From contig OZ316896.1 in the NCBI GenBank assembly GCA_973895155.1, forward strand, positions 23,393,722 through 23,457,721: a stretch of 64,000 nt of DNA, in the 5' to 3' direction. The stretch's first letter is position 1. Every line of letters starts with the position of its first letter. This DNA is from Marsupella aquatica (lineage: Eukaryota > Plantae > Marchantiophyta). Position numbers and translations under genes: made by a program. The notes beneath the pieces were generated by a model. The model saw only the letters and a program-made list of their open reading frames with translations, was not told where the DNA came from and ran no database searches. Below are positions 19,380 through 43,900 of the stretch, piece by piece.

Positions 19380-19391
19380 TAGCCTTTGTTT

Positions 19392-19409: not shown

Positions 19410-19502
19410 GCACTCTACATATCGTAGAGGGGACACATGTGCGTATTCACCTAGGCAGGATACATCAGGACGTAGTACTAACCATTGCATTTATATGAGT
19501 AA

Positions 19503-19900
19503 ATGCCCGTCACTCGTGCTCAAGCAGCTTACTTGAGGAGATTGACCAGCGAACGAGAAAGTGCAACCACAACAAGCTCCGACTCGTCGGGCTCGGAGGA
19601 CTCGCAATCGTCCCGACGTATGAACATACCCCCGGGATCTTCGGGGTCTGGTTCGACCGGCCCTGCTGCGGTTCCACCACCACCACCACCACCACCACCT
19701 ATGGCAGCCGCTCCACCGGTGGCCCGCGCTGCTCAGGCGCCTCCACAAATATCACAACGATCGCGATTTCATTATCGACCTTTCAAAGGGCGTCATGGGG
19801 ATGATCCGGATGAATGGTTGGATGAGTTTGAAGCCACTGCTAAAGCTAATGGGGAAGACGCCATTAAGCTAACCGTCCTCCCGGGAGTGATGCGGGGAGA
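19503..19900 (+). pseudogene. Family-B gag N-terminus, truncated by a deletion junction
   Basis: SQRSRFHYRPFKGRHGDDPDEWLDEFE aligns with family-A gag SQRSRIHYKAFHGRGDEDSDEWLDDFE. Confidence 0.85.
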
Positions 19901-20758: not shown

Positions 20759-23700
20759 TGTGATGCCTAGACAGGAATCACTCGGCCAGTTAAGTGGGTA
20801 AACCAGGAAGGCACCCTAGGAACACCTTAGTATAGGGACAAAACAAGGAAAATATAAACCATTAGGGGCAACCATGGAACCCGGGCCGAGGCCGGAGGTA
20901 AGGACGCTGAGGGTGAAAACTCGATTAGGGTTAGGGCGCGTTAAGCGTCGGCAGCTAGGAAGGATCAACGGGAAGAAGGACCGGCAGAGGAGAGGGGTAA
21001 GGAGCGCTTGCAGGAGATGGTGGCTCATATTGCGAGCACGAACTAGGCAGACGACTACGGGAGGCCAACTACTGTCAGCTGCTTAGGCAAGCACTCGGGG
21101 AGAGAGTAGATATCGACGATCGACCTAAGGAGGGTATGAGCAACGTCAATCAAGCGGCACATTTCTGGGGATGCCTGTTCGAACGGGCAACTGAGTACAT
21201 CAAGACTTACGAGGACGAGGAATCAGAAAGGGCAGCTCGAGAACGGCAGGAGCTCGCTCGATTGTGGGAGCTGCAGAAGACGGCTTTCTTAGGAGGCGAA
21301 CTCATCAAGGACGAGTTCCTGTGGACGCCTACTTCCAATCAACTCGACGATCTTCTGTTTTGCAAAGACAGCGTCGTCGGCATCCAAGAGGCCATCAAGA
21401 ACTGCAACGACATACACTGGGAATTAAAGGGAAGCACGGAAAGGTGGACCCAGGCAACGGTGCTAGGAGAAACCTCCACGGCAGCAGGGATGAAGAGGAA
21501 GGGAGCCGTCAACGATGAAGCCACCCCGACAAAAAGAACGAGGTCAGCGGCACCAAAGAAGCCAGCCGAGCAGCAGAGCAGGAGGCAGGGAGAAGCCGAA
21601 GAGGAGGAGGTCGATCCCATCAAGGCCATTCCAACCAGGGATGACACCTGGAAGGGCTGGGCGGCAACCCTACCGGTGGAGGTGCAACTACATTTTGCAC
21701 GGGAGGAGGATGCATGCTTCACGGCCATGCAGACCAAGAAGTACCAAGGCTTCATGGCCGGATCCGGCTTAGAGGCCTTTGTAAGATTACCATGGCTGAA
21801 GCCGGAGGTACCGGAGTCAGACCTATTAGAATTCGTGGGGTCATGGGAACCCGAGACCAATTGCACGAGGATATATGGGAAGGATTTCTATCTTACTCCC
21901 AAGGTAATTGCCGAAGTGTTTGGCTTGCCGATAGGCAATAAGACCAAAGTTGATACCAGGAAGACCTTGCCTGACAAGGAGTTCCGGTCGTTCCCTGGGC
22001 CATCAACGAAGAATGGCTTCTTCCGGAACACCTGCACCAACCCGCACATAGGAGAGATGATCGACTTCTTGCGGGTGACCATGCATTGTAACTTGCCGAG
22101 GGCAGAGATCGGCAAGGCACAGGTCTATCTGGCAGAAAGGCCAGACCCAAGCCGGGACTACAACGGGTACCTCCTCAACCAATTGAAGAAGATCTTAAGG
22201 GAGGAGCAGCAGGTAATCGGCATGGGGAGCGTGTCGCGGCTTGGCTATCACATGCCGCTGTTGTGCCGGTATGCCAGAGGTCAGACTTTTGCCCCGGTAC
22301 TCCCCCTGCAGGTAAGGGCACCCGAGGAAGCTCCAACGCCGAGGCCGTTGGCTGAGAAGCCTCAACCACCTGTTAGCCCTACGATCGAGCAGGTGTTTAG
22401 ACCCAGGAAGGAGGACTTGCCGATGCAGCAACCAGGCATGCAGAGTCTGCTGAAACTACTGGAGAAAGAAAAGAAATCGGCATCGGCAACAACAACGGCA
22501 ACGGCAACAATGCAGGACACTACTACAGAGGTAGGCCTACACCGGCTCACAAGAGAAAACCCCTTTGCTGGAGACAAGGAGAGAATCAGGCCGGAATCCA
22601 AGCCAGGTGTTCGAATGTACGTGGGAACCTCAAGCTCTGAATCTGAGGCAGAATTGCCTGAAGCTCCTACCGACGAAGAGGAGAGGGAGAAGCCGGACGT
22701 CCAAGAGGTAGAGGAGGCAGTGGAGGACTGCAGCCATGATAATTCCGGCTATGGGTCGGACCATCACGTTCCAGGAGTAAGGACCTGTGGCCGGTTTGTC
22801 CCCACACTTCCAAGGGTAGTGCGAGGGGACCCCAACCAGCAGAGTAGCCCTGAGTCTCCCCCACCAGATGTTGCTCCCCCGAGCTTCGACGGCATAAAAC
22901 AGACGGTGCAGGAATTTCAGGAGCGAATCAGGCAGGAAGAGGAGGCAGCCCTGGCTAGGGAAAAGGATTTACCAGGAGGAGATTGGCCGGAGGACATCAG
23001 GTGGCTAGCCGAAAAAGGAAGCAAACCTCTAGCCACGATTGAAGAGATCCGCAGGACGGCTTGGGAGCAGAGGCCGCGATGGGCGATGCCGATCACTTCT
23101 ACTTACTCCACCTACGCTAAGAATAGAGCCATGGAGTATGGTGAGATGTGTGGGGAACTTGCGCTCGGCATCTTTGGAGAGGAGTTGGAGGTAGGACCCT
23201 TTTTCCATAGGGAGCAGTTGGAGAAGCACCAATTAGAAGAAGCGGTGGCTTTGGAGAGAAGCAAGAAGGACGAGGTCATTCGGCGGCTTAGGAGGATGGA
23301 AGCCGAGATTGAAGATCTAAGGGCGGCCAAGAAAGCCCAAGATGAACTGCGGATTAAACGACATGAGCTGAACATCATGCAGGGGCAGTTGGACACCGCG
23401 CAGGCTGATAATCAGAATATCAAGGATAAACTGACTCAGACGCAGGGAGAGTTGGCCGACACAATCAAAGAGAGGGAGAAGTGGAAGCAAGAGCTGAAGA
23501 ATACAGAGGAGGCCCACATAACAGCCAACAGCCGGGCCATGGCGGAGACCCAAAGAAAGGAATGGGCGTTGAAGGGGGAGCTCGAGAAAATCCGCGGAGC
23601 CCTTGAGCAGAAGGAGGCCGAGTTAGGGAAATCCTATCAAGGGATTATGGCGTTGCAGCAGGAGCTTGCGTCCCTGACGGCCAGCTTCAAGGCCGACCTA

Positions 23701-25422
23701 AGGGAGAAGGACGAGATGCTCGAACAGACTTACGCCAAGATGAACCAGATGGAGTCTGTCATCATTGCAGAGCTCGACAAGGAGCTAAGAGCAACCCGGG
23801 AGGAGAGGACTACCTTGAAACAAGAACGGGAGGAAGCCCAGAAGGAACTAGAGGAGGCAGGCAAGGACCTGGATGAGACCCAGGAGGAGTTGGAGGAAAT
23901 CACGAGGAAGATGGAGAACCTCCAGCGGCGGGCCGACAACCAAACGGAGCGGCTGAAGAAACAAGCCGCAGTATTTAAGTGCTTGTCTTCATCAGGCCCA
24001 ACTCCAATTGGGGCAACCAAGTTACCAGGAGTGGTACTGGCCGAAGAAAAACCCGTGCCAACTGCACTAGTGCCGGAAGTAAGTGGCAAGGGGAAGGGAC
24101 CAGCGGCCGAACCAGAAAAGAAGAAAAAGCGGAAACCTTCAGGGTCAAGGAGTAATCCGACTCCACAAGCCGTGGTGACCAAAGAGGTAGAACCAGCACC
24201 ATCCTCCGGCATGAATCCAGCAAAAGATCCCGCTATCATCACAGGTGGGGGTGGTGCGGCCCAAGCCGAACTACTCAGTAATGAGGCCGGTATTCCAGAT
24301 CCGCCTCTTGAGCAGGCCGGGGAGGCCGTAGCCGAGGCTGAGGCCGTAACCGATTCCCGAGCCGATGCCGACGCCGATGGTGGACCCAGTCAGGCCGATG
24401 GAGAGTTGACTCAATCAAGGGCAGGTAATCTGTCAGGGAATGAGCCTACGGCAGTGGCTGAGGAGGAAGCGTTGGGGGCGTCCATTAAGGATCCACCACC
24501 GGTGTCGTGACGGTGCAAAGGCGCCGTTCCTTTTAGGGAGGGCGGACGTGGAGGGAGGAGGCGTGAGTGGGCAGGGCGGGCGCGGATCTCCAAGTTTAGG
24601 ATTAGGATCAGGACCAGGAGCGGCCCTGACACTTAGCTTAGTGGGATTGCGGTCCCACTGGTAGGAGCAACACTTGTGCTCCTGCCTTGCTGTACATAGG
24701 TAGATTCGGGCAAGTAGATTACTGTTAAGTAGATTAGGCTTACGATGCAAAGAATGGTGGATCCACTACCAGGATAAGTACCTGGGCAGCGGGGAGCTCA
24801 GGGCCTCTTCTTTAGCAAGTTTTTAGTTTGCACCAGCCGGGCTGGGATCAAGTAGTACGAGAAGCTCTCGGTTAGTCATACAGTGACCCTTGTGTATATT
24901 CATGTTTCCTCATGCCTAAGAGCTGAATAGAGTTGGCCTCACGGCTTAGTTCGCAGAACTTGTGTATGAGATGTACTGTTTGTATGGCAAGTGCATGGTA
25001 TGACTCAGTCAGAATGAGTCATTTTGCTATTTGTGTGTCTCATTAACTTGTGTGAAGAGTGCCCACATCAACCAAAAGGAAGGAAAGTAAGCAGGGGAGT
25101 GAGAGTTGGATGTGTCGAGCTGAGAGAGGTCTTAGCGGCTTAACCAAGCCTATTGGGGATCATTCCGGCGGCGGAATCCAAACATACCTAACAAGACGGA
25201 GGGGAAGATAGGGGAAGGCCTAGATTAGGCCGGCTACGTATCTCATGACCCGATGAAGGATCTGTCCAGTATATGTGTGTAAAATGTTAATAGTAGTAGT
25301 AGAAGGTTAGCAGCGTCCCATGCCGCTAAGCCGCGGAAACGGCCTCGCCAAGCGCGAAACCCGCGGGAATCGGCATGAGCTGGGGGGTTTCTTGGGTTTA
25401 GGGAGCCATGGGACGCACCACA
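20759..25422 (+). mobile_element. Family-A solo LTR, 4664 bp
   Basis: TGTGATG...CACCACA ends with 5-bp TSD ACCGG (20754-20758 and 25423-25427). Both ends match the PPT-adjacent and PBS-adjacent termini of the proviruses. Confidence 0.95.
21136..24510 (+). CDS. Intact 1124-aa LTR-encoded protein (PMD/Transposase_32-like core, basic NLS-like clusters, long coiled coil)
   Basis: Uninterrupted ATG-to-TGA ORF wholly inside the solo LTR. Contains LLEFVGSWEPETN...LTPKVIAEVFGLPIG, KRKG..PTKRTR and KKKKRKP. No obvious transmembrane segment. Confidence 0.88.
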   Translation: MSNVNQAAHFWGCLFERATEYIKTYEDEESERAARERQELARLWELQKTAFLGGELIKDEFLWTPTSNQLDDLLFCKDSVVGIQEAIKNCNDIHWELKGSTERWTQATVLGETSTAAGMKRKGAVNDEATPTKRTRSAAPKKPAEQQSRRQGEAEEEEVDPIKAIPTRDDTWKGWAATLPVEVQLHFAREEDACFTAMQTKKYQGFMAGSGLEAFVRLPWLKPEVPESDLLEFVGSWEPETNCTRIYGKDFYLTPKVIAEVFGLPIGNKTKVDTRKTLPDKEFRSFPGPSTKNGFFRNTCTNPHIGEMIDFLRVTMHCNLPRAEIGKAQVYLAERPDPSRDYNGYLLNQLKKILREEQQVIGMGSVSRLGYHMPLLCRYARGQTFAPVLPLQVRAPEEAPTPRPLAEKPQPPVSPTIEQVFRPRKEDLPMQQPGMQSLLKLLEKEKKSASATTTATATMQDTTTEVGLHRLTRENPFAGDKERIRPESKPGVRMYVGTSSSESEAELPEAPTDEEEREKPDVQEVEEAVEDCSHDNSGYGSDHHVPGVRTCGRFVPTLPRVVRGDPNQQSSPESPPPDVAPPSFDGIKQTVQEFQERIRQEEEAALAREKDLPGGDWPEDIRWLAEKGSKPLATIEEIRRTAWEQRPRWAMPITSTYSTYAKNRAMEYGEMCGELALGIFGEELEVGPFFHREQLEKHQLEEAVALERSKKDEVIRRLRRMEAEIEDLRAAKKAQDELRIKRHELNIMQGQLDTAQADNQNIKDKLTQTQGELADTIKEREKWKQELKNTEEAHITANSRAMAETQRKEWALKGELEKIRGALEQKEAELGKSYQGIMALQQELASLTASFKADLREKDEMLEQTYAKMNQMESVIIAELDKELRATREERTTLKQEREEAQKELEEAGKDLDETQEELEEITRKMENLQRRADNQTERLKKQAAVFKCLSSSGPTPIGATKLPGVVLAEEKPVPTALVPEVSGKGKGPAAEPEKKKKRKPSGSRSNPTPQAVVTKEVEPAPSSGMNPAKDPAIITGGGGAAQAELLSNEAGIPDPPLEQAGEAVAEAEAVTDSRADADADGGPSQADGELTQSRAGNLSGNEPTAVAEEEALGASIKDPPPVS

Positions 25423-27153
25423 ACCGGCCACAGGTCCTTACTCCTGGAACATGATGATCCGACCCATAGCCGGAGTTATCATTGCTGTAGTCCTCCACCG
25501 CCTCCTCCACTGCTTGGACTCCCGGCTTCCCCTTCTCTTCTCCGCGGGTAGGAGCCTTAGGCTGTTCTGCCTCGGATTCGGAGCTTGAGGCTCCCACATA
25601 CATTTGAACTCCCGGCTCGTGTTCCGGCCTCCTCCTCTCCTTGGCTCCGGTAAAGGGGTTTTCCTTCATGAGTCATCTTAGGCCTACCTCTGGGGCAGCG
25701 TCCTGTACCGGTGGGGTTGCCGTTGCCGGTGCCGGTGCCGTTTGCTTTTCCTTCTCCAGCATCTTCAGCAGATTCTGCATGCCTGGTTGCTGCATCGGCA
25801 AGTCTTCTTTTCTTGGCCTAAACACCTGTTTGATCGTAGGACTAGCAGGCTGGTTGGGCTTCTCTGCTGCCGGCCTCTGTTCCGGAGCTTCCTCTGGTGC
25901 CCTTACCTCCAGGGGAAGTACTGGGGCAAAGATCTGACTTCGGGCATACTGGCACAACAGCGGCATGTGATAGCCAAGCCGGGATACGCTTCCCATGCCG
26001 ATCACCTGTTGTTCCTCCCTTAAGATCTTCTTCAATTGGTTGAGGAGGTACCCATTGTAGTCCCGGCTTGGGTCTGGCCTCTCTGCCAAGTAGACTTGTG
26101 CCTTGCCGATCTCTGCCCTTGGCAAGTTGCAATGCATGGTCACCCGCAAGAAATCGATCATCTCTCCGTTGTGCGGGAAGAAGCCATTCTTCGTCGATGG
26201 CCCCGAAAATGACCAGAACTCCTTGTCAGGCAAGGTCTTCTTGGTATCTACTTTGGTCTTATTGCCCATCGGCAAGCCAAACACTTCGGCAATCACCTGG
26301 GGAGTGAGATAGAAATCCTTCCCATACACCCTCGTGGCATTGGTCTCGGGCTCCCATGACCCCACGAATTCTAATAAGTCTGAATCCGGCACCTCCGGCT
26401 TCAGCCATGGGAATCTTACGAAGGCTTCCAAGCCGGATCCGGCCATGAAGCCCTGGTACTTTTTGGTCTGCATGGCCGTAAAGCATGCATCCTCCTCTCG
26501 TGCAAAATGTAGTTGCACTTCCTCTGGTAGGGTCGCCGCCCAGCCTTTCCAAGTGTCATCCTTGGTTGGAATGGCATTGATGGGATCAACCTCCTCCTCT
26601 TTGGCTTCTCCCTGCCTCCTGCTCTGCTGCTCTGCTGGCTTCCTTGGTGCCGCCGACCTTGTTCTTTTTTCCGGGGTGGCCTCTTCGTTGCTGTTTCCTT
26701 TCCTCTTCATCTCGGCTGCCGTGGATGTTTCTCCTAGCACGGTTGCCTTCGTCCACCCCTCCGTGCTACCCTTCAACTCCCAGTGCACGTCGTTGCAGCG
26801 GTTGATGGCTTCCCGAATGCCGACGATCCTGTTTTTGCAAAACAGAAGGTTGTCGAGCTGATTGGTAGTAGGAGTCCACAAGAACTCGGCCTTGATGAGT
26901 TCTCCTCCTAAGAAGGCGGTCCTTACCCCTCTCCCTGCCTGGTCTTCCCCCCCATTGGTTTACCCCTAGCTGCCGACACTTAGCGTGCCCTAACCCTAAC
27001 CGTGTTTTCTCCCCCGGTGTCCTTACCTCCGGCCTCGGCCCGGGTTCCATAGTCACCCTTAATTGTTTATATTTTCCTTGTTTTTGTTCCTATACTAATG
27101 TGTTTCTAGGGTACACTCCCGTTTTCCCACTTAACTGGCCCAGTGATTCCTGG

Positions 27154-30100
27154 CTAGGCATCACATAGCTCCCCACTTAATTGTGAAGCGTCCTTGCGAA
27201 CAACTTCATCTTCGTCCATATAGTATTCTTGAGGCGGTCGTAATGGATGCGAACTGGGTATACCTCTCCAGTAATGTTGGCTAATTGTACCGAGCCATTG
27301 GAGAACTTCATTGCTACCCTGAAAGGTCCTAACCAGCAAGTGTAAAGCTTCCCCGGAAACCTACTATACCTACTGTCATAAAGTAATACAAGATCTCCTA
27401 TGTGAATACTAACTGGTTTCAACCTCTTATCATACTGTTGCTTCATGGTATTTTGTCTATGTTCTATCCTCTCAGCTGAAATCATTCTTGCCTCTTCTAA
27501 AGCTTCTAACCTATATTCTCGCTCCTTTAGGCTTTCCTCCTCTGAGGCTCTCTCCTCAATTGTAACTTGAAATGTAGGAATCTCAAGTTGCATGGGTACC
27601 AGAGCTTCCTGTCCAAAGGTTAAGAAAAACGGTGTATGACCGGTAGTGGATTTATAGGCTAAATTGTAAGCAAAAACAGCAGCAAACAATTTATCATCCC
27701 AATCGAGTTTGTTCTGAGCTACCGTCTTGTTCAATATCTTTCCTATAATTCCATTTGCTCATTCTGTCAACCCATTTGCCTTTGGATGGTAGGGAGTAGT
27801 AGGCCTATGTCTAACTAAATACTGCTCATTTAAACGACTAATTATATCATTCAGAAAATGGGTTCCTCTATCACTAACTAATTCTAGGGGTGCACCATAC
27901 CTGGTGAAGATTTGCTCATACATGAATCGAGCCGTAGTAATTGCATCATCCTTCGTTGTCGGCCTGGCCTCTACCCACTTAGTTGCATAATCCGTGGCCA
28001 GGATTATGTACTTGTTTCTTCGAGGGTGGGTCAATGGTTTTAGGGGTCCGATGTAATCAATACCCCACTTCTCGAATGGTGCCAGAGGTAGAATAGGATG
28101 CAGTGGATGTCTTGTGGATGCCCTTGGTCCTCCCGCTCGCTGACAAGGATCGCATTGTTTGATAAACTGATAGACATCCTTGTGCAAGGTGGGCCACCAG
28201 TAACCGACATTTAATATCTTTTTAGACGTGGTTACTGGAGCAAAATGTCCCCCGGCCTCCTCCCATGCATGGCCCGTAGGGCTCATTTTACCTCTCCTTT
28301 TTCCAAACACCTTTGAATCGTGCCGCTGATTCCATGCCTGTGCAATATGCCCTTAATGCACTGATACTGTCTGACCTTCCGCAAAAAGACTGCGGCTTGC
28401 TCACGGCTGAGTCCTGGCTGTAATCTGGAAGTGCTGAGAAATTGTAAAATCTCAGGGTACCATGTATCAGCTATTTCCACAACGAATAGCTCCTCGTCGG
28501 GGAATCGATCATCGATGCAATCCGTGGCAGGTTCACCTGTGATCCTTGAAAAGAAGTCGGCATTGGCGTGTAGCTTTCCCGGCTTGATTTTTAGCTTGTA
28601 GTCAAACTCCTGTAATAGCAAAATCCATCTTGCTACCCTGCCTGTAAGGTCCGGCTTATTGACTAGGTACTTCAAACTTTCATGATCGGTATGAAAGATT
28701 ACTTTGTACCCTAGTAAATAATGCCTAAACTTTTTACATGAATAAATGATTCCTAATGCTTCTCTTTCTATGGTGGAGTAGTTTCGTTCGGCATCGGCAA
28801 GCTGGCGGCTTGCAAAGTATATGGGATGGTCCCTTCCTTTCTCATCCAACTGACTTAGTACTGAGCCGATACAGAAGCCTGAGACATCTACAAAGACATA
28901 AAAATCCTTGTTCCAGTCTGGTGCTATCATGACTGGAGCCTCTACTAACATCTGCTTCAATTCTACCACCGCTGTTACTCGTTCTGGTGTGGGTTCAAAG
29001 TCTGCACCTGCCTTGAGCATGTTGGTTAATGGTAAAGCTAGCTTGGCAAAATCCTTGATGAACGGCGATAATAACCAATGCAACCCAAGAAGGATCTCAC
29101 ATCCTTTATGTTCTTAGGTTGCATGATATCTAGCCACACTGCTAGCTTACCTTTGTCAATCTCAATGCCCTTCTTTGATACCTTGTGACCTAGTAGCACC
29201 CCCTCTGTTACTGCAAAGAAACATTTATCTGGGTGTAACTTGAGACCTACCTCTCTGCATCTCAAGAAGGTTTTCCTGAGGTATTTAGCATGTTTTGATG
29301 CCTTCCCAAACACTGCAAAGTCATCAATGAAGATTTCTATGAACTTTCTCAAGTAGTCATGGAAAATGTTCACCATTAATCGTTGGAACATCGTTGGTGC
29401 ATTACAGAGTCCAAACGACATACGATTGAAGACATAGATCCCCCATTCCGTGATGAAGGCCGTCTTGATTTGATCCTCCTGCCTGATCCTGATTTGGTTA
29501 TAACCCGAGTAACCATCCATTAATGAGTATAGTTCATGACTGGCTACCATATCTAGTACCATATCAGTAAAGGGTAAAGGAAAATGGTCTTTTAATGTAG
29601 CCTCATTCAACTTCTTGTAATCCTGACCAACCCGGATCTTTGGTTTACCATCGGGTCCAGCTTTCTTGGGAACTATCACAATTGGAGACACCTAGTCTGA
29701 GTGTAGGATTGGAGTGATGAATCTGGCTTCCACTAGTTTATCGATTTCAGCCTTGACCATCAGAGAATACTTAGGGTTCATCCTTCGAATTGGTTGTCGA
29801 AATGATTTGGCCCCTAACATGAGATAGATTCGGTGTTCTCCTAGTTTTGGGTCTACTCCCTTCAGATCTTGGTGACTCCATGCGAACACATCCTGGAATT
29901 CAATCAGTAATTCACTGATCTCTTTCTCGAGCTCAGGTGTTAGGTCCCTCCCTAAGTTCAGTTCCCTTCCTTCTCCTAAGTCGAGCTTTCGGTATTGCCG
30001 TGCTTGGATCATATTAATCTGCTTCTTCAAATTCGGGTCCAGCTCGGCTTCCAGCCTCTCCAGTCTCATACCTCCATAGACTGGAATCTCGGTTGTACTA

Positions 30101-30402
30101 GCCGAGTTGGTTGACTTAATTTCTCCCTGGTCATCAACAGACTGTTCCCTTGCCATTCTGCTTGGTTTTGATTTAGTTGTCGGCTTCCCTTCCTGACTCG
30201 GCTCTGGGTTGTTCCCATGCATCTCATCTATTCCTGCTTCCTGAGGGTCAGGCTGTCATGCTCTTCCTGCTTCTAGTAGGGCCTCAATTTGCTCTGCCCT
30301 CGAGATCGGCTTGTAAGCTGATCCCCTTGTATTTAATTTGTTGCCGATGATCGATGGCGTTGTGGATCCCGTCGGCTCTGCCACAACGCCTGAGGAAAAT
30401 CC
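27154..30402 (-). pseudogene. pol of element 2 (RT, RNase H, integrase) with stops and frameshifts
   Basis: Fragments 29692-30222, 29038-29691, 28283-29083, 27759-28310 and 27177-27734 are collinear with element 1 pol. Confidence 0.92.
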
Positions 30403-33322
30403 ACTGTCCTTGCTGCAGCTCCCCACCTAGCCGTTTTATCCAACTGGTCCACCTCTTTTACTTCCTCCAGAATTGAAGCTAAAAAGGTGGATTCTATTGT
30501 AAAGCAATCCTCGGTCTCTTCTTCACCTTCCTCCAAGTCACCTTCCATAGGTTCTTGCCATAATCCGTTGGGGGGTACTTCTGGTCCAAAGACACTTTCT
30601 TTGGTTAGGTCAGTGAGGCATTCTAGCCAACGTACTTCATCGGCTGACTCCAGTCCACTGTCATACCCATCTACTTCCCTGATGTTTTTCCTACGGTCAT
30701 CCTTAGTGTCCCAGGATACCGTGATAGAGGGGGTCCCAAAAGTGAACTCCTTCTTACCCCAATCTTCTATTACCTTGGCTAGGTACAGCCATGGTCTGCC
30801 AATTAATATTCGGAACGACGTAGGGTTCACCGGCTTCATCACTACATAGTTAATGCTAAAGAAGATTCCTCCTATCTCAGTCTTGATGCCGGTTAACACT
30901 CCCGTGGGAATGACCTGATACCCATTGGCCATGTTTAACACTCTTCCAGTCATCTCCGGCGTTAGACCCCATCCTTTTGCTGTTGAATCAATCATAATAC
31001 ATACCCCGGATCCTCCATCAATGGGTACCCGTAGTAATATTTCTCCTTGAATCATTAATGGTAATGCTGGGGCTCCTTGATCTTCTTCTATCATCAGCAC
31101 GTCGGATTTGGTTGCTACCTTGGGTAATCGTGGCTTGCCGAGAATCGCCTTCCTTAACTGCTTCCGGAAGTACGGGCTATTTTTCAAAAGTTGACCTACT
31201 ATTGCTGAGACTCTAGACTCTAGCACATCTTTAGCCAGGTCATAGGGAACTATCGGCTTCTCTTCTGGCGGTGTCTCTATCTTGGCTTCGGCCTGTTTTT
31301 CCACGCTGGTTTCCACAGCCCTTGGATCCTTCGAAGCAAACAACACTTTTGCTCATTTCACATCCTTGGCTATGGCTTCGGTATTCTCCAGGGTTTCTAA
31401 TTCTCGCAATTGTTCCTTAACACTAGCCGTAATAGAGGGGTAGAACAACTTAGGATGATCTCGATTGAAGTTGCTGTCCTGTGAAGGATTGGGCTCACTG
31501 GTGGGCTCATGGCTTACCTGTGTTGCCGACGCCTTTCCTTCCCCTTCCGTTGATGTTGACGAAGAGTCGATCCTTTCTTCCTTAACCTTCCCTTTATTTT
31601 TGGCCAGCCCATCCCACCTTTCCTTCCTTCTGGTGGATCGAGTAGAGACCCGGTAGCAATCATGATCCAAATCCTCTTCTGAGAAGGTTGATAGGGCCTC
31701 GGCCTCATCATCAGATGGTCCAAACTCTGCCTCGGCATCCGTTTGCCATCCGAGTTCGATGTGGTTGATTTGAACTCCTCCGGGGGGTACCTGTCGGTAA
31801 AACCTTGACTGGCAAGAGTTTATGATTTGCGGCCAGGCCTGCCAACCAAGTAGGACATTGTCCTAGCATATGACCTTCCTGTCGGCATCCCATACATAGC
31901 TGAGCTGGTTGTCCATCACCTTGTTTATGTGCATTTGGGCATTCCCTAGCAAAATGGCCAGGTTGACCACAATTATAGCATGCCGCAAATCTTTGCACAT
32001 TCGGCCTAGGAGGTACTGACGGATTTTGAATAATCCGAGGATACATCTCTCCCGGATTGTTCCTTAATCCCGACCAGAGAGATGCAGGTCTGTTGGATAG
32101 GTCTTGTGCTCCAGTCTCACTGATGCCGAAAACACTATCAGCGGCATCTCCTAGGAAGTACTCTACTTCTCCCTGACATGGTCTGACCTCAGCCACATGC
32201 CGAACATGACTGGTATTAAGTTTAGGACACGCATCTTTATGGTGTCCGGTTTTATAACATAAGGCACACCATACAGAGCTATCCTCCTGTACTACCTTCT
32301 TCTTTGGTTTTACCTCTGCTATTATAGCCTTAAGCTGCTCGGTAAGGGCTACAATGTTATCTGGTGTTTTAGCCTCTAGCTTGACTTTCATCTTCCCTCT
32401 CCTTCTGCCCTTCCTTTTCCTAGTTTTTTCTTCTTCAGAACTAGAAGATGACTCACTCTTGCTACTTCCACTATCCGAGCTTGAGTTATCACTTCTTGAC
32501 TTCTTAGAATGTTTCTTTTTCTTATCTTTTTTCTTATGGGGTGATCCCTCCTCCGATGAGGAACTCTCAGACTTAAGCTGTTTCTTCCGGCTTGTGATAT
32601 CTGCATTAATGTATAATTGAATATCCTTAATTGCCTCGGCCAAGGTCTCTGGGTTCTCCTTCCTAATTGCAAAACTCATCTTTTGTGGCAAAGCATTCAC
32701 TAACCATTGAAGTTGCATACCTTCAGATGCATTGGTCTTTGTACGTCTTACCAACTTTTGGAAGCGTTGCAAGAACTTTCTGAAGGATTTGTTCTCCTTG
32801 AACCGAAGTCGTCCCAACTTCAGCACTGCTAACTCTGAAGTTCCAATGGGTCAAAATTCTTTGACAAATAGTGATCTAAAAGTATTCTAGATGGCTTGAT
32901 CTTCCACGTCCAATGCTCTGTACCACGGCCTAGCCTCACCTTTGAACAGGCCGGGAAGAATTTGCATCTTGATGGCCGATTCTCCATTTGCTGCAGCGGT
33001 TCCCTCGAAGTCATCCAACCATTCGTCCGGATCCTCATCTCCTCTCCCATGAAAGGCCTTGTAATGAATGCACGACTGTTGGCTCAGTCTGGTCCCTGGC
33101 CTCTCATCTGGCCCTGTCTCTGGTTCCCCATGTCGGTTGGAGACTCACTTCTAAGACCGACTCTTCTTCTGGTATGTCTTCTTTGATGCCACTTTCAGTT
33201 ACGGAGCTACTAGCTCTTTCTGCCCCTCTCAGTCGTTGTGTATCATGCCACCCGGCAAGCTGCTGCAGACGAGCTCTCTCCCATTGAATCGCTCTTTCCT
33301 CCCTCGGCGTAGGGTCAGTCAT
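30333..33322 (-). pseudogene. gag-protease of element 2
   Basis: Gag with three knuckles, then aspartic protease motifs VPIDGGSGVCIM and ILIGRPWL. The frame ends at TAA 30333, just past the slippery site. Confidence 0.88.
30343..30402 (-). promoter_or_regulatory. Candidate -1 ribosomal frameshift signal (element 2)
   Basis: G GAT TTT CCTCA, then perfect stem GGCGTTGTGG/CCACAACGCC. The loop GCCGA is complementary to downstream TCGGC. Confidence 0.72.
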
Positions 33323-33369
33323 TACCTACGCTTCCTTCCTAACTTCATATCTCACGGCTTAAGAAATGC

Positions 33370-33387
33370 CCCCTCCATCTAGCGCCA
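33370..33387 (-). other. Primer-binding site of element 2
   Basis: TGGCGCTAGATGGAGGGG adjacent to the LTR end at 33392. Confidence 0.78.
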
Positions 33388-35507
33388 AAAATGTGGTGCG
33401 TCCCATGGCTCCCCAAACCCAAGAAACCCTCCTGCACAAGCCAATTCCCGCAGGTTTTGTCCTCAGCGAGGCCGTTTCCTCGGCTTAGCGGCATGGGACG
33501 CTGCTAATCCTCTACTACTATTATTAACACTTTACACACATATACTGGACAGATCCTTCATCGGGTCATGAGATACGTAGTCGGCCTAATCTAGGCCTTA
33601 CCTTGCCTTCCCCTCGTCTTCTTTAGGTATATTTGGATTCCGCCGCCGGAATGATCCCCAATTGGCTTGGTTAAGCCGCTAAGACCTCTCTCAGCTCGAC
33701 ACATCTAGCTCTCACTCCCTTGCTTACTTTCGTTCCTATCTTAGTTGATGTGGGCACTCTTCACACAAGTTAATGCGACACACAAATAGCAGAATGACTC
33801 CTTCTGACTGAGTTATACCATGCACTTGCCATACAAACAGTAGATCTCATACACAAGCTCTGCGAACTAAGCCGTGAGGCCAACTCTATTCAGCTCTTAG
33901 GCATGAGGAAACATGATTATACACAAGGGTCACTGCATAACTAACCGAGAGCTTCTCCTACTACTTGATCCCAGCCTGCTGGTGCAACTAAAAACTTGCT
34001 AAAGAAGAGGCCCCGACCTCCCCGCAGCCCAGGTACTTATCCTGGCTGTGGATCCGCCCAATTCCTTGCATCGTAAGCCTAATCTACCTAACTGTAATCC
34101 CGCCGTTGTAAGTTCTCCATCTTCCTTGTGATTTCCTCCAACTCCTCTTGGGTTTTGTCCAGGTCCTTCCGTACCTCCTCCTGCTCCTTCTGGGCCTCCT
34201 TCAACTCCTTCTGGGCTGCTTGCAACTCCTCTGCTAAGGTAGTCCTTTCTTCCTGGGTTGCTCTTAGCTCCTTGTCGAGCTCCTTCACGACTTCAGACTC
34301 CATCTTGTTCATCTTGGCATAAGTCTGATCGAGCTGGTCGTCTTTCTCCCGCAGGTCGGCCTTGAAGCCGGCTGTCAGGGATGCAAGCTCTTGCTGCAGC
34401 ACAATGATCCCTTGATAGGCTTTCCTTAATTCGGCCTCCTTCTGCTCAAGGGCTCCACGGATATCCTCGAGTTCCCCTTTTAATGCCCTCTCCTTTCTCT
34501 GGGTCTCCGCCATGGCCCGATTGTTGGCTGCTAAGTGGGCCTCCTCTGCGTCCCTTAGCTCCCGCTTCCACTTCTCCTTTTCCTTGACTACGCCGGCCAA
34601 CTCTCCTTGGGTCCGAGTCAGTTTATCTTTGATAATCTGATTGTCAGACTGCGTGGTATCCAACTGCCTCTGCATGATGTTTAGCTCATGCCGCTTGATC
34701 CGTAGCTCATCTTGGGCTTTCTTGGCCGTCTTCAGGTCTTCCACGTTGGCTTCCATCTCCCTAAGCCGTCGGATGACCTCGTCCTTCTTGTTTCTCTCCA
34801 AAGCCATCACTTCTTCTAATCGGTGCTTCTCCAACATCTCCCTGCTCCAACTCCTCCCCAAAGATGCTGAGCGCAAGTTCCCCACACATCTCCCCGTACT
34901 CCATGGCTCTATCTTTAGCATAGGTGGAGTAAGTAGAAGTCATCGGCATCAACCACCGCAACCTCTATTCCCAAGCCGTCTTGCGGATCTCTTCTATGGT
35001 GGCAAGAGGGTTGTTTCTTTTTTTGGCAAGCCGCCTGATGTCCTCCGGCCAATCTCCTCTTGGCAAATCTTTTTCCCTAGCCAGGGCTGCCTTCTCTTCC
35101 TCCCTAAGTCGCTTCTGAAACTCTTGTGCCGTTTGCTTGATGTCGTCAAAGCTCGGGGGAGCGACATCTGGTGGGGAGACTCGGGGCTACTCTGCTGGGT
35201 GGGGTCCCCTCGAACTACTCTTGGAAGCGTGGGGATAAACCGGCCACAGGTCCTTACTCCTGGAACATGATGATCCAACCCATAGCCGGAGTTATCATTG
35301 CTGTAGTCCTCCATCGCCTCCTCCACTGCTTGGACTCCCGGCTTCCCCTTCTCTTCTCCGCGGGTAGGAGCCTTAGGCTGTTCTGCCTCGGATTTGGAGC
35401 TTGAGGCTCCCACATACATTCGAACTCCCGGCTCGTGTTCCGGCCTCCTCCTCTCCTTGGCTCCGGTAAAGGGGTTTTCCTTCATGAGTCGTCTTAGGCC
35501 TACCTCT

Positions 35508-36144: not shown

Positions 36145-38623
36145 TGTGACGCCAATGACATGGTCCTTATTTTGTAATCTGATTAAGTAGGTTGCTGTAT
36201 GCAAGGAGTAGCTATTGATATTGCATAACAATTAGCAAGATGGCAAGAATAAGGGCAATCATGGCGTTAAGAGTAGGGAAATAAAAGCTATGTCGCAGGT
36301 GGTCGATGACCATATCTCTTTCAATATGTCACCAAATCCGGATCTGTAAAGAGCATTGGAAAGATCTGGTCAAGGCGAGTAAAATCGATATAAAACACTC
36401 GAGAAACGGAGGTGTATTAAGAAAGATACCGCCTGATTAGTGTGACGGGTTAACTTGTGGCCAGAATTAGCGGATTCGGCTTCAGTTTCGGGTTAACTCA
36501 AGCTCGACCACGGCTTAGCTTATGTGAGCACGGCTTCAGCTTAGCTCAGGTCAGCACGGCTTCAGCTTAGCTCAGGTAAGCACGGCTTCAGCTTAGCTCA
36601 GGTCAGCGCGGCTTCAGCTTAACTCAGGTAAGCACGGCTTCAGCTTAGGCTTAACCCGGGTTCGGACTAGATTGATCCCGAGTTAGACTTAACTTGGGTT
36701 AGCCTAAACTCGGGCTCAGGTTAGCATAGGTAAGCTCGGGTTCGGGCTCAGCTTAGGCTAGGTTAGCGGATAGTGGATAGCGGGTAGCGGCCTAACCCGA
36801 GACCACGGGTTAGCTCTACTCGGGTTAGATAGGATAGCTAGGTTAGCCGAACTCGGGTTAGCTATGTAACTTGGGTTAGCGCAGCAGTGAGTACCCCCTC
36901 TCGGTTGCGGGGGCATAACTCTCTGTGTATTTGACCAAATCGGCTATAATTGACCTCGTTGGAAAGAGGAGCTCAAGCCGCTTCCAACGCTGCTATCCAC
37001 GCAGCAAATGGTTGAATAGAGAAATCGGGAGAGGAGGCGCAAGCTCGCGAAAACCATGGAGGAGGGCCAAATCCGAAGTACATAACCAATTTGAGATAGA
37101 AATAAAGCTGTGAGTTAGGGTTCAGTAGTTAGAGATAGTGGCGGCTCTGTTAGGGCTGGGATGGGGCTCTAGCAGCGTAGCATCCACCCATTTGGGCTCA
37201 ATGAGAGTATATAGAGCAGCCCCCCGGTAGAGGCAGGGGGGGAACTTCAATTGTGTGATCTCACGTAGATTGAGCAGCAGGGAGGAGCTCTGTGCAAGGA
37301 AGGCTGGGCTTGGAAGCTGTGTGTTGGGGAGAGCTTGGTTGTGCTATTACTCAGGGAGTAATCAGCCACGCTTCACAGCAACAGTTGGCCAGGTTTGCAA
37401 GCTGGATTGTGGCTCTTTCTAGTAGGCAACACAACTGGGTTCTTTTCCCCCGATACAGAGCCTTGGTGAAGGTGATGTGTTGGTGATTGTAAACTGCGGG
37501 GAGGATTTCAATGTGATTTGTGGTGAGCACATTAGGGAGGCTGAGATACTGATCGAGGGGCAGCAGCAGGAGCATTTACAGTTTAGTCTGGCAAGGCTAC
37601 GTGATCCATGGGGAGTCCCGGCCTTTGTCTGGTAGAGAGCACTAAGGGATTTATGGCCAGAGCTGAGCTTGCAGGGCAAGCATGAGGCCGGGCCTCATTG
37701 TAGTCTGGGGTAGATTGCCGTTAGGCCTGGTACCAGCTTTGAAGTCGAGTCAACTGTGCATGCATAACTTGACATTCTGAAATGGAGGTGTGAGATCTGT
37801 ACGTGCCCCCAAGAATGAAGTGCAATGAAGGAGGTTGAGTTCAGGATTGAGTTTGCAAGGCAAGTACGGGATTGGTTCGAGTCCAATTTGCCGTCGCAAT
37901 CTGGAGTGAGCCGGGCTCAGGTTCAGGATTGAGCTTGCATGGCAAGCATGGGGCTTGCGGGGCAAGCACGTCGCAATCTGGAGGAGACAGCCTTCGGGCC
38001 TATTGTTCGGATCAAGTGTTCTCAATGAACTATTGTGCACATCTTTGAATCTAACTGAGTTTTCCTCTCAGGCCTCATTTCTCTCATGGATGTGTGTGTG
38101 TGTGTGAGGCAATCTGAGTGTATGATGAGACTAGCAGCGCCACTGAGAGGTGTACCGGGTGCATTGAAGTGGGTTGGGTGAGGGCTGTCACAGCTCTGAT
38201 TGCTGAGAGTGGAATGGCAGAGTGGTGGGGCAATGGCTTAGAAGTCCCTAAGCCGGGAATCAGTCTGGAGTCACTGGTTTATGGGTACATTCCGGCGGCG
38301 GAATAGAAATATACCTATGACAGGAAGCATACGTATAGACATATGTGCACCGTAGCGCTAGGCCCTGTGTGTACAGGCCCGATATGAAGACCCCTTCTCA
38401 CCAGAACTATCATGAGCACAGGATCTGATTCCCAACCTTGGTTCCTAGGGATTGAGCTTGGGTGATGTGTGACGGAGTCTTGCTATGATAGTCTGGTGTT
38501 AAGGGCATAAATTGGTGTTTACCGGCCTTCACAACATCCCTTCGTGATCCTCAGGTACAAGGAGATGGTTTTGGCACCCATAGTGATGGTTTTGGTGTTA
38601 AGACCCATGTCAATCGCGTGACA
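36145..38623 (+). mobile_element. Family-C solo LTR, 2479 bp, non-coding
   Basis: TGTGACGC...GCGTGACA ends with TSD CGGCA (36140-36144 and 38624-38628). Shares promoter-like and U5 motifs with family B. Confidence 0.88.
36527..36648 (+). repeat. 26-bp tandem repeat (about 4.7 copies) in family-C U3
   Basis: Unit AGCACGGCTTCAGCTTAGCTCAGGT(C/A). Confidence 0.88.
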
Positions 38624-40980
38624 CGGCATGTGATAGCCAAACCGGGATATGCTTCCCATGCCGATCACCTGTTGTTCCTCCCTTAAGATCTTCTTCAATT
38701 GGTTGAGGAGGTACCCGTTGTAGTCCCGGTTTGGGTCTGGCCTCTCTGCCAGGTAGACCTGTGCCTTGCCGATCTCTGCCCTTGGCAAGTTGCAATGCAT
38801 GGTCACCCGCAAGAAATCGATCATCTCTCCGATGTGCGGGTTGGTGCAGGTGTTCCGGAAGAAGCCATTCTTCGTCGATGGCCCCGGAAACAACCGGAAC
38901 TCCTTGTCATGCAAGGTCTTCCTGGTATCTACTTTGGTCTTATTGCCCATCGGCAAGCCAAACACTTCGGCAATCACCTGGGGAGTGAGATAGAAATCCT
39001 TCCCATACCCTCGTGGCATTGGTCTCGGGCTCCCATGACCCCACGAATTCTAATAAGTCTGAATCCGGCACCTCCGGCTTCAGCCATGGTAATTTTACGA
39101 AGGCTTCCAAACCGGATCCAACCATGAAGCCCTGGTACTTTTTGGTCTGCATGGCCGTAAGGCATGCATCCTCCTCTCGTGCAAAATGTAGTTGCACTTC
39201 CTCTGGTAGGGTCGCCGCCCAACCTTTCCAAGTGTCATCCTTGGTTGGAATGGCATTGATGGGATCGACCTCCTCCTCTTCGGCTTCTCCCTGCCTCCTG
39301 CTCTGCTGCTCTGCTGGCTTCCTTGGTGCCGCCGACCTTGTTCTTTTTGCCGGGGTGGCCTCTTTGTTGCTATTTCCTTTCCTCTTCATCTCGGCTGCCG
39401 TGGATATTTCTCCTAGCACGGTTGCCTTTGTCCACCCCTCCGTGCTACCCTTCAACTCCCAGTGCACGTCGTTGCAGCGGTTGATGGCTTCCCGAATACC
39501 GACGATCCTGTTTTTGCAAAACAGAAGGTTGTTGAGCTGATTGGCAGTAGGAGTCCACAAGAACTCGGCCTTGATGAGTTCTCCTCCTAAGAAGGCAGAT
39601 TTTTGCAGCTCCCACAGTCGAGCAAGCTCCTACCGTTCTTGAGCTGCTCTCTCCGATTCTTTGTCCTCGTAAGTCCCAATGTACTCAATTGCCCGTTCGA
39701 ACAGGCATCCCCAAAAATATGCCACTTGATTGACGTTGCTCATACCCTCCGTGAGTCGATCGTCGGTATCTGCTCCTACCCAGAGTGCTCGCCCAAGCAG
39801 CTGACAGTAGTTGGCCTCACGTAGTCGTCTGCCTAGTCCGTGCTTGCAAATGAGCCATCATTCCTCGCGAGCGGTCCTTACCCCTCTCTCTGCCTGGTCT
39901 TCCCTCCCGTTGGTTTACCCCTAGCCGCCGACACTTAGCGTGCCCTAACCCTAATCGTGTTTTCTCCCCCGGCATCCTTACCTCCGGCCTCGGCCCGGGT
40001 TCCATAGTCACCCTTAATTGTTTATATTTTCCTTGTTTTTGTTCCTATACTAATGTGTTTCTAGGGTACACTCCCATTTTCCCACTTAACTGGCCAAGTG
40101 ATTCCTGGCTAGGCATCACAGCTACCTTAAAGAAAGAGTTGGAGGAAGCCCAGAAAGAGTTGGAAGAAGCCCAGAAGGAGCTGAAGGAGGCAAGGAAGGA
40201 CCTGGACAAAACCCAAGAGGAGTTGGAAGAAACCACAAGGAAGATGGAGAACTTACAACGGTGGGCCGACAACCAAACGGAGTGGCTGAAGAAACAGGCC
40301 GCAGTATTTAAGTGCTTAGCTTCATTTGTTCCAACTCCAATTGTGGGAACCCCGTTACCAGGAGTGGTACTGGCCGAAGGACAAGCCCTGATGCCGGAGG
40401 TAGGTGGCAAAGGGAAGGAACCAGATGCCGAAATAGGGAAGAAGAAGAAGCGGAAACCTTCTGGGTCTGGGAGTTATACGGCTTCTCCAGCCGTTGTGAC
40501 CAAGGAGGTAAACCCGGCACCAACCTCCGGCATGGTCACGGCAGTGGATCCACCTGTCTTAGAAGGTGGGGATGGCAAGGCCAAGGCCAGGACAACTATT
40601 GATGAAGCCGTGGTAGCAAACCCCCCACTAGAGCAAGCCGAGGAAACCGTAGCCGGGGAGGCCATGGCCGATGCTGAGGCCGAAGCCGAGGGTGGACCCA
40701 GTCAGGCCGATGAAGAGTTGACTCGGTCCGGGGCAGGTAATCTGTCAGAGGAAGGACCGACGGCAGTGGTTGCGGGGGAAGCGTTGGGGGCGTCCATTGA
40801 GGATCCACCACCGGTGTTGTGACGGTGCAAGGGTGCCGATCCTTTTAGGAAGGGCGGACGTGGAGGTAGGAGGCGTGAGTGGGCAGGGCGGGCTTGGATC
40901 TCCAAGTTTAGGCTTAGGATCAGGACCAGGAGATTGCCCTGACACTTAGATTAGTGGGATGGCGGACCCACTAGTAGGAG

Positions 40981-43900
40981 TGTGATGCCTAGCCAGGAAT
41001 CACTAGGCCGGTTTACATGGTAAAAGCAGGAGTGTACCCTGGAAGCACCTTAGTATAGTAACAAAAAAAGGAATTATAAACAATTAAGGGTTACTATGGA
41101 ACCCGAGCCGAGGCCGGAAGTAAGGTCGCCGGGGGTGAAAACACGATTAGGGTTAGGGCGCGCTAAGCGTTGGCAGCTAGGGGTGACTAACGGAAGGGAA
41201 GACCAGAGGAGGAGAGGGGTAAGGACCGCTCGCGAGGAATGGTGGCTCATTTGCAAGCACAAACTAGGCAGACGACTAAGGGAGGCCAACTACTGTCAGC
41301 TGCTTGGGCGAGCACTCTGGGTAGGAGCAGATACCGACGATCGACTCACGGAGGGTATGAGCAACGTCAATCAAGTGGCACATTTTTGGGGATGCCTGTT
41401 CGAACGGGCAACTGAGTACGTCAGGACTTACGAGGACGAAGAATCAGAGAGAGCAGCTCGAGAATGGCGAGAGCTCGCTCGACTGTGGGAGCTGCAGAAA
41501 TTTGCCTTCTTAGGAGGTGATCTCATCAAAGCCAAATTCTTGTGGACTCCTACTGCCAATCAGCTCGACGACCTTTTGTTTTGCGAAGACAGAGTCGTCG
41601 GCATTCGGGAAGCCATCAACCGCTGCAACGACCTACACTGGGAGTTGAAGGGTAGCATGGAGGGGTGGACGAAGGCAACCTTGCTAGGAGAAACATCCAC
41701 GGCAGCCGAGATGAAGAGGAAAGGAAACAACAACAAAGAGGCCACCCCGGCAAAAAGAACGAGGTCGGCGGCACCAAGGAAGCCAGCAGAGCAGTAGAGC
41801 AGGAGGCAGGGAGAAGCCGAAGAGGAGGAGGTCGATCCCATCAATGCCATTCCAACCAAGGATGACACTTGGAAAGGCTGGGCGGCGACCCTACTAGAGG
41901 AAGTGCAATTACACTTTGCACGGGAGGAGGATGCATGCTTTACGGCCATGCAGACCAAGAAGTACCAAGGCTTCATGGCCGGATCCGGCTTGGAAGCCTT
42001 CGTAAAATTACCATGGCTGAAGCCGGAGGTGCCGGATTCATACTTATTAGAATTCGTGGGATAATGGGAGCCCGAGACCAATTCCACAAGGGTCTATGGG
42101 AAAGATTTCTATCTTACTCCTCGGGTGATTGCCAAAACGTTTGGCTTGCCAATGGGCAATAAGACCAAAGTAGATACCAGGAAGACCTTGCCGGACAAGG
42201 AGTTTTGGTCGTTCCCAGGGCCATCAACGAAGAATGGCTTCTTCCGGAACACCTGCACCAACCCGCACATCGGAGTGATGATCGATTTCTTGTGGGTGAC
42301 CATGCATTGCAACTTGCCGAGGCCAGAGATTGGCAAGGCACAGGTCTACCTGGCAGAGAGGCCAGACCCAAGCCGGGATTATAACGGGTACCTCCTCAAC
42401 CAACTAAAGAAGATCTTGAAGGAGGAACAGCAGGTGATCGGCATGGGAAGCGTGTCCCGGCTTGGCTATCACATGCCGTTGTTGTGCCGGTATGCCAGAG
42501 GTCAGATCTTTGCTCCAGTGCTTCCCCTGCAGGTAAGGGCACCAGAGGAAGTTCCGGAGCAGAGGCCGGCACCAGAGAGGCCCAACCGGCCCAACCAGCC
42601 CGACATTCCAACAATCGAGCAGGTGTTTAGGCCAAGGAAAGAAGACTTGCCGATGCAGCAACCAGGCATGCAGAATCTGCTGAAATTGCTGGAGAAGGAG
42701 AAGAAAATGGCATCGGCAACGGCACCGACACCGGTACCGGCAACGGCACCAATATCGGACACTGCCCCAGAGGCCGGCCTAAACCGACTCAGGAGGGAAA
42801 ACCCCTTTACCGAAACCAAGGAGAGAATTAGGTCGGAACACAAGCCGGGAGTTTGACTATATGTGGGAGCCTCAAGCCCCGAATCAGAGGCAGAGCAGCC
42901 AAAGGCTCCTCCCAGCGAAGAGCAGAGCGATAAGCCGGGAATCCAAGCTGTGGAGGAGGCGGTGGAGGACTACAGCAATGATAACTCCGGCTATGGGTCG
43001 GATCATCATGTTCCAGGAGTAAGGACCTGTGGCCGGTTTATCCCCACGCTTCCAAGAGTAGTTTGAGGGGACCCCAACCAGCAGAGTAGCCCCGAGTCTC
43101 CCCCAACCAGATGTTGCTCCCCCGAGCTTTGACGACATAAAGCAGACGGCACAAGAGTTTCAGGAGCAACTTAGGGAGGAAGAGAAGGCAGCCCTGGCTA
43201 GGGAGAAAGATTTACCAGGAGGATATTGCCCGGAGGACATCAGGCGGCTTGCCGAAAAAAGAAGCGACCCTCGTGCCACTATAGAAGAAATCCGCAAGGC
43301 AGCTTGGGAGTAGAGGCCGCGGTGGTTGATGCCGATGACTTCTATTTACTCCACCTATGCTAAAGATAGAGCCATGGAGTACGGGGAGATGTGTGGGGAA
43401 CTTGCGCTCAGCATCTTTGGGGAGGAGTTGGAGCAGGGACCCTTTTTCCAAAGGGAGATGTTGGAGAAGCACCGATTAGAAGAAGCGGTGGCTTTGGAGA
43501 GAAGCAAGAAGGACGAGGTCATCCGACGGCTTAGGGAGATGGAAGCCGAGGTGGAAGACCTGCAGGCGGCCAAGAAAGCCCAAGACAAGCTACGGAATAA
43601 GCGGCATGAGCTAAACATCATGCAGGGGCAGTTGGATACCGCGTAGTCTGATAATCAGATTATCAAGGATAAACTGACTCGGACCCAAGGAGAGTTGGCC
43701 GGTGCAGTCAAGGAAAGAGAGAAGTGGAAGCGAGAGCTGAGGGGCGCGGAGGAGGCCCACTTAGTAGCCAACAATCGGGCCATGACGGAGACTCAGAGAA
43801 GGGAGAGGGCATTGAAGGGGGAACTCGAGGATATCCGCGGAGCCCTTGAGCAAAAGGAGGCCGAGTTAGGGAAATCCTATCAAGGGATTATTGCGCTGCA

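Follow-up and report, generated by a model that had tools for sequence, protein, structure and literature searches.

How does a retrotransposon make both its protease and its reverse transcriptase (RT) when the two lie in different reading frames? The question is raised by a 64,000-nt stretch of the liverwort Marsupella aquatica (contig OZ316896.1, positions 23,393,722 to 23,457,721; hereafter the window), a nest of long terminal repeat (LTR) retrotransposon pieces in which one Ty3/gypsy family has two minus-strand copies, 92-93% identical to each other. In both copies an upper frame, which bears the protease in copy 2, ends in a TAA, and RT follows in the -1 frame. An earlier inspection of the letters alone (the original prediction) had proposed a retrovirus-like programmed -1 ribosomal frameshift with a pseudoknot at this junction. 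Judging from the sequence, we consider a programmed -1 frameshift signal at this place probable, and the junction is most likely a real, conserved and functional one in an unusual place and host, with a mechanism of the textbook kind.

Layout and predicted structure of the protease-RT junction

The heptamer GGATTTT (G GAU UUU in the transcript) stands at 30396-30402 in copy 2, where it is in phase with the protease frame, and in the same frame at 11050-11056 in copy 1 (coordinates are those of the window, and all junction features are on the minus strand). The original prediction had placed the end of the upper frame about 60 nt further on and RT in the -1 frame, and this is what we found: the TAA, at 30335-30333 in the protease-bearing frame of copy 2 and at 10989-10987 in copy 1, follows 60 nt (20 codons) past the heptamer in both. 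The -1 frame, which leads to RT, opens after a stop at 30429 or 11083, 8 codons before the heptamer, and the two frames overlap by 93 nt. Such heptamers are known, as had been claimed; according to a 2016 review, the G_GA type is used by umbra- and dianthoviruses in plant cells, with the exact G_GAU_UUU at the site of pea enation mosaic virus (PEMV) (PMC5009743).

Past the heptamer comes a 5-nt spacer (30391-30395 in copy 2, 11049-11045 in copy 1), which differs between the copies in the way first described (CCTCA against CTGCA), and then stem 1, in which GGCGTTGTGG is paired with (C/T)CACAACGCC. In copy 2, the last two letters of the spacer and the first G of the stem make up the CAG of a possible splice acceptor. 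The 10-bp stem (30390-30381 with 30365-30356 in copy 2, the whole at 30356-30390; 11044-11035 with 11019-11010 in copy 1) is firmly predicted by folding in both copies. Its pair probabilities are 0.97-1.0 in copy 2 and 1.0 in copy 1, dropping there to 0.42 at the G-U end, and the stem alone is predicted at -14.9 and -17.0 kcal/mol. Folding z-scores were between -1.85 and -3.80 in five of six stretches, and -0.46 in the one that cut the stem.

The 15-nt loop of stem 1 holds the 5' strand of a predicted second stem (30376-30372 in copy 2), whose 3' strand TCGGC lies 8 nt after stem 1 at 30343-30347; the equivalent strands in copy 1 are 11030-11026 and 11001-10997, so that spacer and both stems occupy 10997-11049. 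Stem 2 would have 5 bp, with loops of 4, 6 and 8 nt, and the same review gives 5-9 nt as the usual spacer and 7 nt as the loop between the stems in Visna-Maedi (PMC5009743). Both strands named for the pseudoknot, GCCG(A/G) in the loop and TCGGC after the stem, are thus present, and the formation of stem 2 is partly borne out: its 5 bp are kept with one G-U variant, and its 3' strand is kept where loop 3 differs. A pseudoknot appears somewhat likelier than a plain hairpin. We also considered a small alternative hairpin within loop 3, which is disfavoured because loop 3 is variable. The differences between the copies had been said to preserve pairing, and they do so as one-sided G-U changes, copy 1 having one G-U pair in each stem; two transitions would keep pairing about one time in four by chance.

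The components of a canonical -1 signal are found together here, namely an in-phase X XXY YYZ heptamer, an overlapping -1 open reading frame (ORF) and a predicted 3' structure at 5-9 nt. The combined pattern of heptamer, spacer and stem occurs twice in the window and in none of 100 shuffles. The internal region of copy 2 (6226 nt) contains 21 heptamers of slippery type; a single one is followed at 4-9 nt by a stem of at least 10 bp, and it lies in the 93-nt overlap. In 40 shuffles of this region (245,765 positions with 1069 heptamers), no heptamer had a stem of at least 10 bp and 10 had one of at least 8 bp. A heptamer with a 10-bp stem within the overlap is therefore expected by chance about once in 10,000 or less.

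In the mechanism that we favour, translation of gag and protease would end for the majority of ribosomes 20 codons past G GAU UUU. The predicted stem or pseudoknot, 5 nt downstream, would cause a pause, at which a minority would move one base backwards and carry on into RT, RNase H and integrase. The outcome would be protease at the level of Gag and RT-integrase at a few percent. This presumes a common frame for gag and protease in working copies, actual slippage, and the formation of stem 2.

A further feature is packed into the same place. The polypurine tract (PPT) at the 3' end of the element (27168-27179 in copy 2, 1818-1829 in copy 1) recurs inside it, as an exact 12-letter copy at 11072-11083 in copy 1 and with 11 of 12 letters at 30418-30429 in copy 2, all on the minus strand. 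The internal tract lies 15 nt upstream of the heptamer, at 49% of the predicted 15,554-bp DNA, and the first three letters of the copy 2 tract are the stop that bounds the -1 frame upstream. The 12-letter tract has 4 matches in the window against 0.38 expected. Its position fits a candidate central PPT by analogy with HIV-1, Ty1 and EVADE, in which an internal purine tract is able to prime a second plus strand (PMC7197481). The element studied here likewise has an internal purine tract, which repeats the 3' tract exactly and stands at 49% of the predicted DNA; what sets it apart is the location in the protease-RT linker, 15 nt before a candidate slippery site.

Conservation across copies and selection on the frames

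The sequence layout, the frames, the selection on the -1 frame and the retention of the junction across copies are the parts of the frameshifting account that could be observed directly. The original prediction had described the signal as seen in both proviruses, which holds for the layout of the motif, but neither copy is intact: copy 1 is without the protease, and copy 2 has stops and indels. A comparison with the junction of 'family B' had also been proposed, and no such junction was found, the region being present in only two copies within the window.

Both copies share the frame break, and therefore the ancestor of the copies had it. Between them, the RT-RNase H part has a synonymous divergence (dS) of 0.23 and a ratio of nonsynonymous to synonymous divergence (dN/dS) of 0.09, with dN/dS of 0.06 for integrase and 0.12 for gag. 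The linker after the upper stop gives dN/dS of 0.25 in the -1 frame (P 4e-5) against 1.1-1.2 in the other two frames; ahead of the heptamer the upper frame gives 0.39 (P 0.039) and the -1 frame 0.50 (P 0.16). These values indicate that pol, integrase and the -1-frame linker stayed under purifying selection since the copies diverged. From the stop to the first AUG of the pol frame, 93 nt were tested; of the 16 differences there, 9 leave the -1-frame protein unchanged (P 0.007 for an expectation of 0.25, and 0.047 for 0.33), which argues against a separate start at that AUG; variants listed for 30292-30331 are silent in the pol frame in 6 of 9 cases.

Other copies were sought in public sequencing runs, five of which, from three studies with three organism labels, hold part of the region, one of them being possibly the window's own source. 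Contigs were aligned at 80% likeness, 716 of them (4 runs, 2% threshold) on 30240-30520 and 214 (4 runs, 1% threshold) on 10985-11068; they are unphased, and contig depth was not taken as copy number. At these thresholds, no indel at the junction is listed among either the 716 or the 214 contigs. A contig of 275 nt, at depth 4072, covers the whole cassette gap-free (its run lists five further pieces at depths of 24-88, one more at 84 and one at 6333), and so does a 765-nt contig from the organism with label C. Each of the two has 3 differences from copy 1, which correspond to listed variable places in loop 2 and to the two G-U positions. The G-U forms are not private decay, since a 52-nt contig of depth 5182 matches copy 1 in every letter.

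Listed variable places are concentrated outside the proposed structure: of 37 positions that are paired or in the heptamer 2 are affected, and of 23 unpaired ones 7 (P 0.02). The same holds for third positions of pol codons alone, where none of 10 paired positions but 5 of 8 unpaired ones vary (P 0.007). The alignment of divergent contigs is confined to a core that runs roughly from the start of the heptamer to the end of stem 1, and outside it both flanks are loose. A comparison of these loose ends by eye shows changes at 8 of the 15 positions that precede the heptamer and at 5 of 8 in loop 3. The PPT copy is nevertheless kept there, still 15 nt from the heptamer, and so are the length of loop 3 (8 nt), the 3' strand of stem 2 and the stop. 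Purifying selection, a register kept in contigs of three studies and the rarity of a heptamer with a 10-bp stem all support the original view of the junction as programmed recoding, not decay.

Frameshifting weighed against other explanations

Several observations nevertheless weigh against frameshifting. Continuity between gag and protease is seen in neither window copy, no two-sided compensatory change is seen in the stems, and nested folding puts the strands of stem 2 into small local hairpins. Variants listed upstream of the heptamer are silent in 5 of 20 cases in the upper frame against 7 of 20 in the -1 frame. The variant listing is itself incomplete, comprising 40 of 72 rows for 30240-30520 and the middle of the stretch for 10985-11068; one difference of a divergent subfamily within 11013-11056 is unplaced, and contigs below 80% identity lie outside the comparison. 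One contig has a 71-nt skip over the junction, and the letters between are not known; it was not used as evidence and may be unaligned divergent sequence. The remaining adverse points come from the main rival, which we judge unlikely: partial, Ogre-like splicing, in which a 152-nt GT-AG intron would be removed from some transcripts, joining the protease frame to the pol frame. Its donor and acceptor would be 30541 and 30390 in copy 2 (the in-phase candidate intron at 30390-30541, minus strand) and 11195 and 11044 in copy 1, with the U run acting as pyrimidine tract and the stem regulating the acceptor. Heptamer and spacer do make a good acceptor with an in-phase donor, which the original prediction overlooked. 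In both copies the acceptor reads TTTT-C-(T/C)-(G/T)-CAG^G (the caret marks the splice point), all listed spacer variants leave the CAG, and the donor AAG^GTGACT is common to both copies and in phase. Copy 1 also has a branch-point-like CTAA some 38 nt upstream, and in one divergent loose end the GT of the donor survives although 7 of the 9 letters around it have changed (by eye, 3 contigs). There is also a plant precedent, since the claim that Ogre elements have a spliced stretch that separates GAG-PROT from RT is borne out by the part of the source that treats them (PMC6317226). By crude scores, however, splice-like signals are common: there are 37 acceptor-like sites within the 6226 nt, and for 35% of positions a donor in phase lies 70-400 nt upstream. 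Plant introns are U-rich, whereas the candidate intron is 62-63% purine, 22-23% U, 53% AU and GAA-rich, like a coding interior; it reads open and overlaps with the next frame, and its encoded peptide is kept gap-free over 38 residues in the relative P0257. Splicing would leave the phase of the heptamer, the kept GGA and stem 2 unexplained. If the junction works by frameshifting, a modest coincidence (the CAG and the donor) is needed, whereas splicing needs a rare one (the phase, the heptamer and both stems), and therefore we hold frameshifting to be probable and splicing unlikely.

Pol might instead be made separately, by re-initiation or internal initiation at its first AUG (10876 in copy 1, 30222 in copy 2) or from a shorter transcript, with the structure serving initiation, packaging or the central PPT. 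That AUG is common to both copies, RT-integrase ORFs without protease exist in the relative cluster P0037 (965-968 amino acids, 4 of 14 members), and the PPT copy beside the structure is another possible reason for its conservation. The pol frame, however, is seemingly translated before this AUG, as the silent changes described above (9 of 16 differences and 6 of 9 variants listed for 30292-30331) suggest; the in-phase heptamer would go unexplained, and a free Pol would presumably be without the Gag part for packaging, so that we regard separate expression as quite improbable. We give least credence to shared decay, which would have an old indel breaking a single gag-pol ORF and the family spreading with enzymes from another element. 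In keeping with decay, the three nearest relatives have a continuous ORF and both window copies are broken in many places, but the strong purifying selection on pol after the break (dN/dS 0.06-0.09 at dS of about 0.2) largely refutes it; the register is moreover kept in divergent subfamilies and under three organism labels, and chance would supply the heptamer and stem in the overlap so rarely.

Origin of the break, known systems and the surrounding sequence

Relatives were compared at the protein level among the best 120 long proteins, all of 946-2700 amino acids. In the three nearest, 65-72% identical over the RT-RNase H core, gag, protease and RT lie in one ORF, and the protease-bearing frame of copy 2 is 40-46% identical to their protease region. 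A sister group (n=22) contains 21 ORFs that begin before the protease without a gag match and one RT-only ORF; its named close protein relatives come from liverworts and a moss. A quick tree of 63 rows (at least 430 residues at at least 47% identity, plus 6 angiosperm outgroup rows, the set being without classified reference elements) puts the window copy in a four-row clade with support 98, in which the other members are single-ORF and it is nested at support 84. Because it is nested among single-ORF relatives, the window family has probably gained the break after the protease, which would have arisen in the variable linker between protease and RT in a single-ORF ancestor. There is also a hint, at the protein level only, from P0257, which ends five residues after the Asp that matches the position of the heptamer Asp. 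We rate as an even chance that a retrovirus-style -1 frameshift driven by a pseudoknot arose de novo in this linker of a land-plant LTR family, packed with a central PPT into a 90-nt module whose letters may also serve as a structure-gated splice acceptor. Among the close relatives P0019-P0047 and P0037, three layouts may coexist within one clade.

Searches for further members had mostly negative results. Protein searches gave no gag-protease ORF of the family (3 matches among 3678 candidates; 38 among 1493, mostly fragments; the best 150 of 320). Viral contigs held no relative by protein, and none of their 88 pattern matches was at a locus encoding a relative, while nothing was found in prokaryote genomes. 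Metagenome contigs yielded 9 loci, of which the closest (L089, 66%, 1013 nt) is without the junction and the others are 29-42% identical, with open-frame lengths examined for 4. Three Rfam matches (E 0.66-3.6) were all far below the gathering score and were rejected.

In Rous sarcoma virus the protease lies upstream of the slip. That virus likewise enters the RT frame by a -1 slip, which, according to the 2016 review, is stimulated by a 3' pseudoknot (PMC5009743); here, by comparison, the element is a plant Ty3/gypsy without env, the heptamer is G GAU UUU, and the compact two-stem knot is predicted only. With red clover necrotic mosaic virus and RNA 2 of pea enation mosaic virus it has in common a G_GA-type heptamer and plant ribosomes. 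In the dianthovirus and umbravirus systems, however, a bulged stem-loop pairs with a loop kilobases away, whereas the predicted partner here is 8 nt after the stem; of that type of signal only the heptamer is shared, and the stop is 20 codons away here, not one. Among plant elements, Ogre has a spliced separating region with a mean of 274 bp and Retand a single stop, both with an extra RNase H, whereas this family has a 93-nt overlap in -1 and showed no extra RNase H. Selgy and Tcn1, from non-seed plants, are likewise Ty3/gypsy elements with two overlapping ORFs (GAG:o:PROT-RT-RH-INT), but their break lies before the protease and not after it; in addition, Selgy has a 4-bp target duplication and Tcn1 a chromodomain.

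The layout of a post-protease -1 signal is unlisted for the surveyed plant lineages, although the mechanism itself is textbook. In a compilation of 31 plant lineages (9 not determined), GAG-PROT/RT overlap does not prevail in any, single ORFs, stops, gaps and GAG/PROT overlaps being found instead (PMC6317226, Additional file 5). The 2003 survey, as summarised in the portion of the 2016 review devoted to it, had plant elements with separate frames as +1 only (PMC5009743). No report of such a signal was found in the open-licence literature, most subscription journals and bioRxiv supplements being outside its scope, and the accessible portions of PMC13468544 and PMC2864245 do not mention frameshifts. 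Control of the Gag:Pol ratio in plant retrotransposons is largely an open question, and the junction, if the frameshifting account is true, would give plants an example of -1 recoding that does not come from an RNA virus and can be tested directly. With near relatives that have one ORF or a break before the protease, the clade is suited to asking how such a signal arises. Annotators are also warned that an element with a frame break of this kind is not necessarily dead.

The classification of the family rests on the order gag-protease-RT-RNase H-integrase together with TG..CA LTRs, a target duplication, a primer-binding site and a PPT, as in Ty3/gypsy LTR retrotransposons. A Pfam scan found gag, zinc knuckle, RT, RNase H and integrase. 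No Pfam family at all, and hence no chromodomain, was matched at E 0.01 in the two C-terminal integrase pieces, which points to a non-chromovirus, and the pol pieces scanned had RT_RNaseH families only, with none of the additional RNase H that marks the Tat lineage. Two solo LTRs, a plus-strand one of 4664 bp at 20759-25422 that defines the LTR length and another at 40981-45631, have TG..CA ends and 5-bp target duplications, against the 4 bp of the Phygy/Selgy clade. From these LTRs of about 4.66 kb and the 6226-nt internal region, a full element of 15,554 bp is predicted. Its full gag-protease/pol layout is our inference, pieced together from two broken copies and relatives. In copy 1 the gag frame (11148-13046, minus; capsid and zinc knuckle) is cut near 11237 by the loss of about 937 nt that include the protease, and the upper frame at its junction is therefore not joined to gag. 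Its -1 frame is open from the junction through RT and RNase H (8951-11080, minus; 709 codons, first AUG at 10876), and its integrase is interrupted by a LINE. Copy 2 consists of a broken primer-binding site and gag region (31353-33391, minus), the protease-bearing frame (30333-31352, minus), which has a DGGS motif and a weak Pfam Asp_protease match (E 0.28), and a pol region with linker, RT, RNase H and integrase (27177-30426, minus) that is broken by stops and indels. The stops are a TGA at 31355 between gag and protease and, in the pol frame, a TGA at 30258 and a TAG at 29694, accompanied by several indels. The in-frame TGA at 31353-31355 (minus) could be private to copy 2 or family-wide and subject to read-through, copy 1 being without this part.

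The LTR itself contains an element-sense open frame of 1169 codons (21001-24510, plus) inside the solo LTR at 20759-25422; it has a long coiled-coil portion and matches no Pfam family above cut-off. Pieces of it also occur at 14024-15382, 25673-26959, 38519-39629 and 41054-44728; so large an ORF in an LTR is unusual and would occur twice per element. Other occupants of the window include the LINE inside the copy 1 integrase (2275-7968, plus), which has frames of 572, 211 and 1100 codons and one stop at 4663-4665, and an insertion at 15343-19900 that is unmatched elsewhere in the window. The two ORFs of this insertion (15915-16925 and 16926-18482, plus) are proline-rich and coiled-coil, again with no Pfam family above cut-off. 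A broken PPR gene at 51092-52960 (minus) with E, E+ and DYW domains is of the organelle RNA editing factor type and, with the liverwort and moss protein relatives, would fit a moss-like land plant; a 513-codon ORF at 58761-60302 (plus) has a weak protein kinase match (E 0.002) and presumably resembles Crinkler-type kinases. A tandem array with a 59-bp period occupies 48378-48731.
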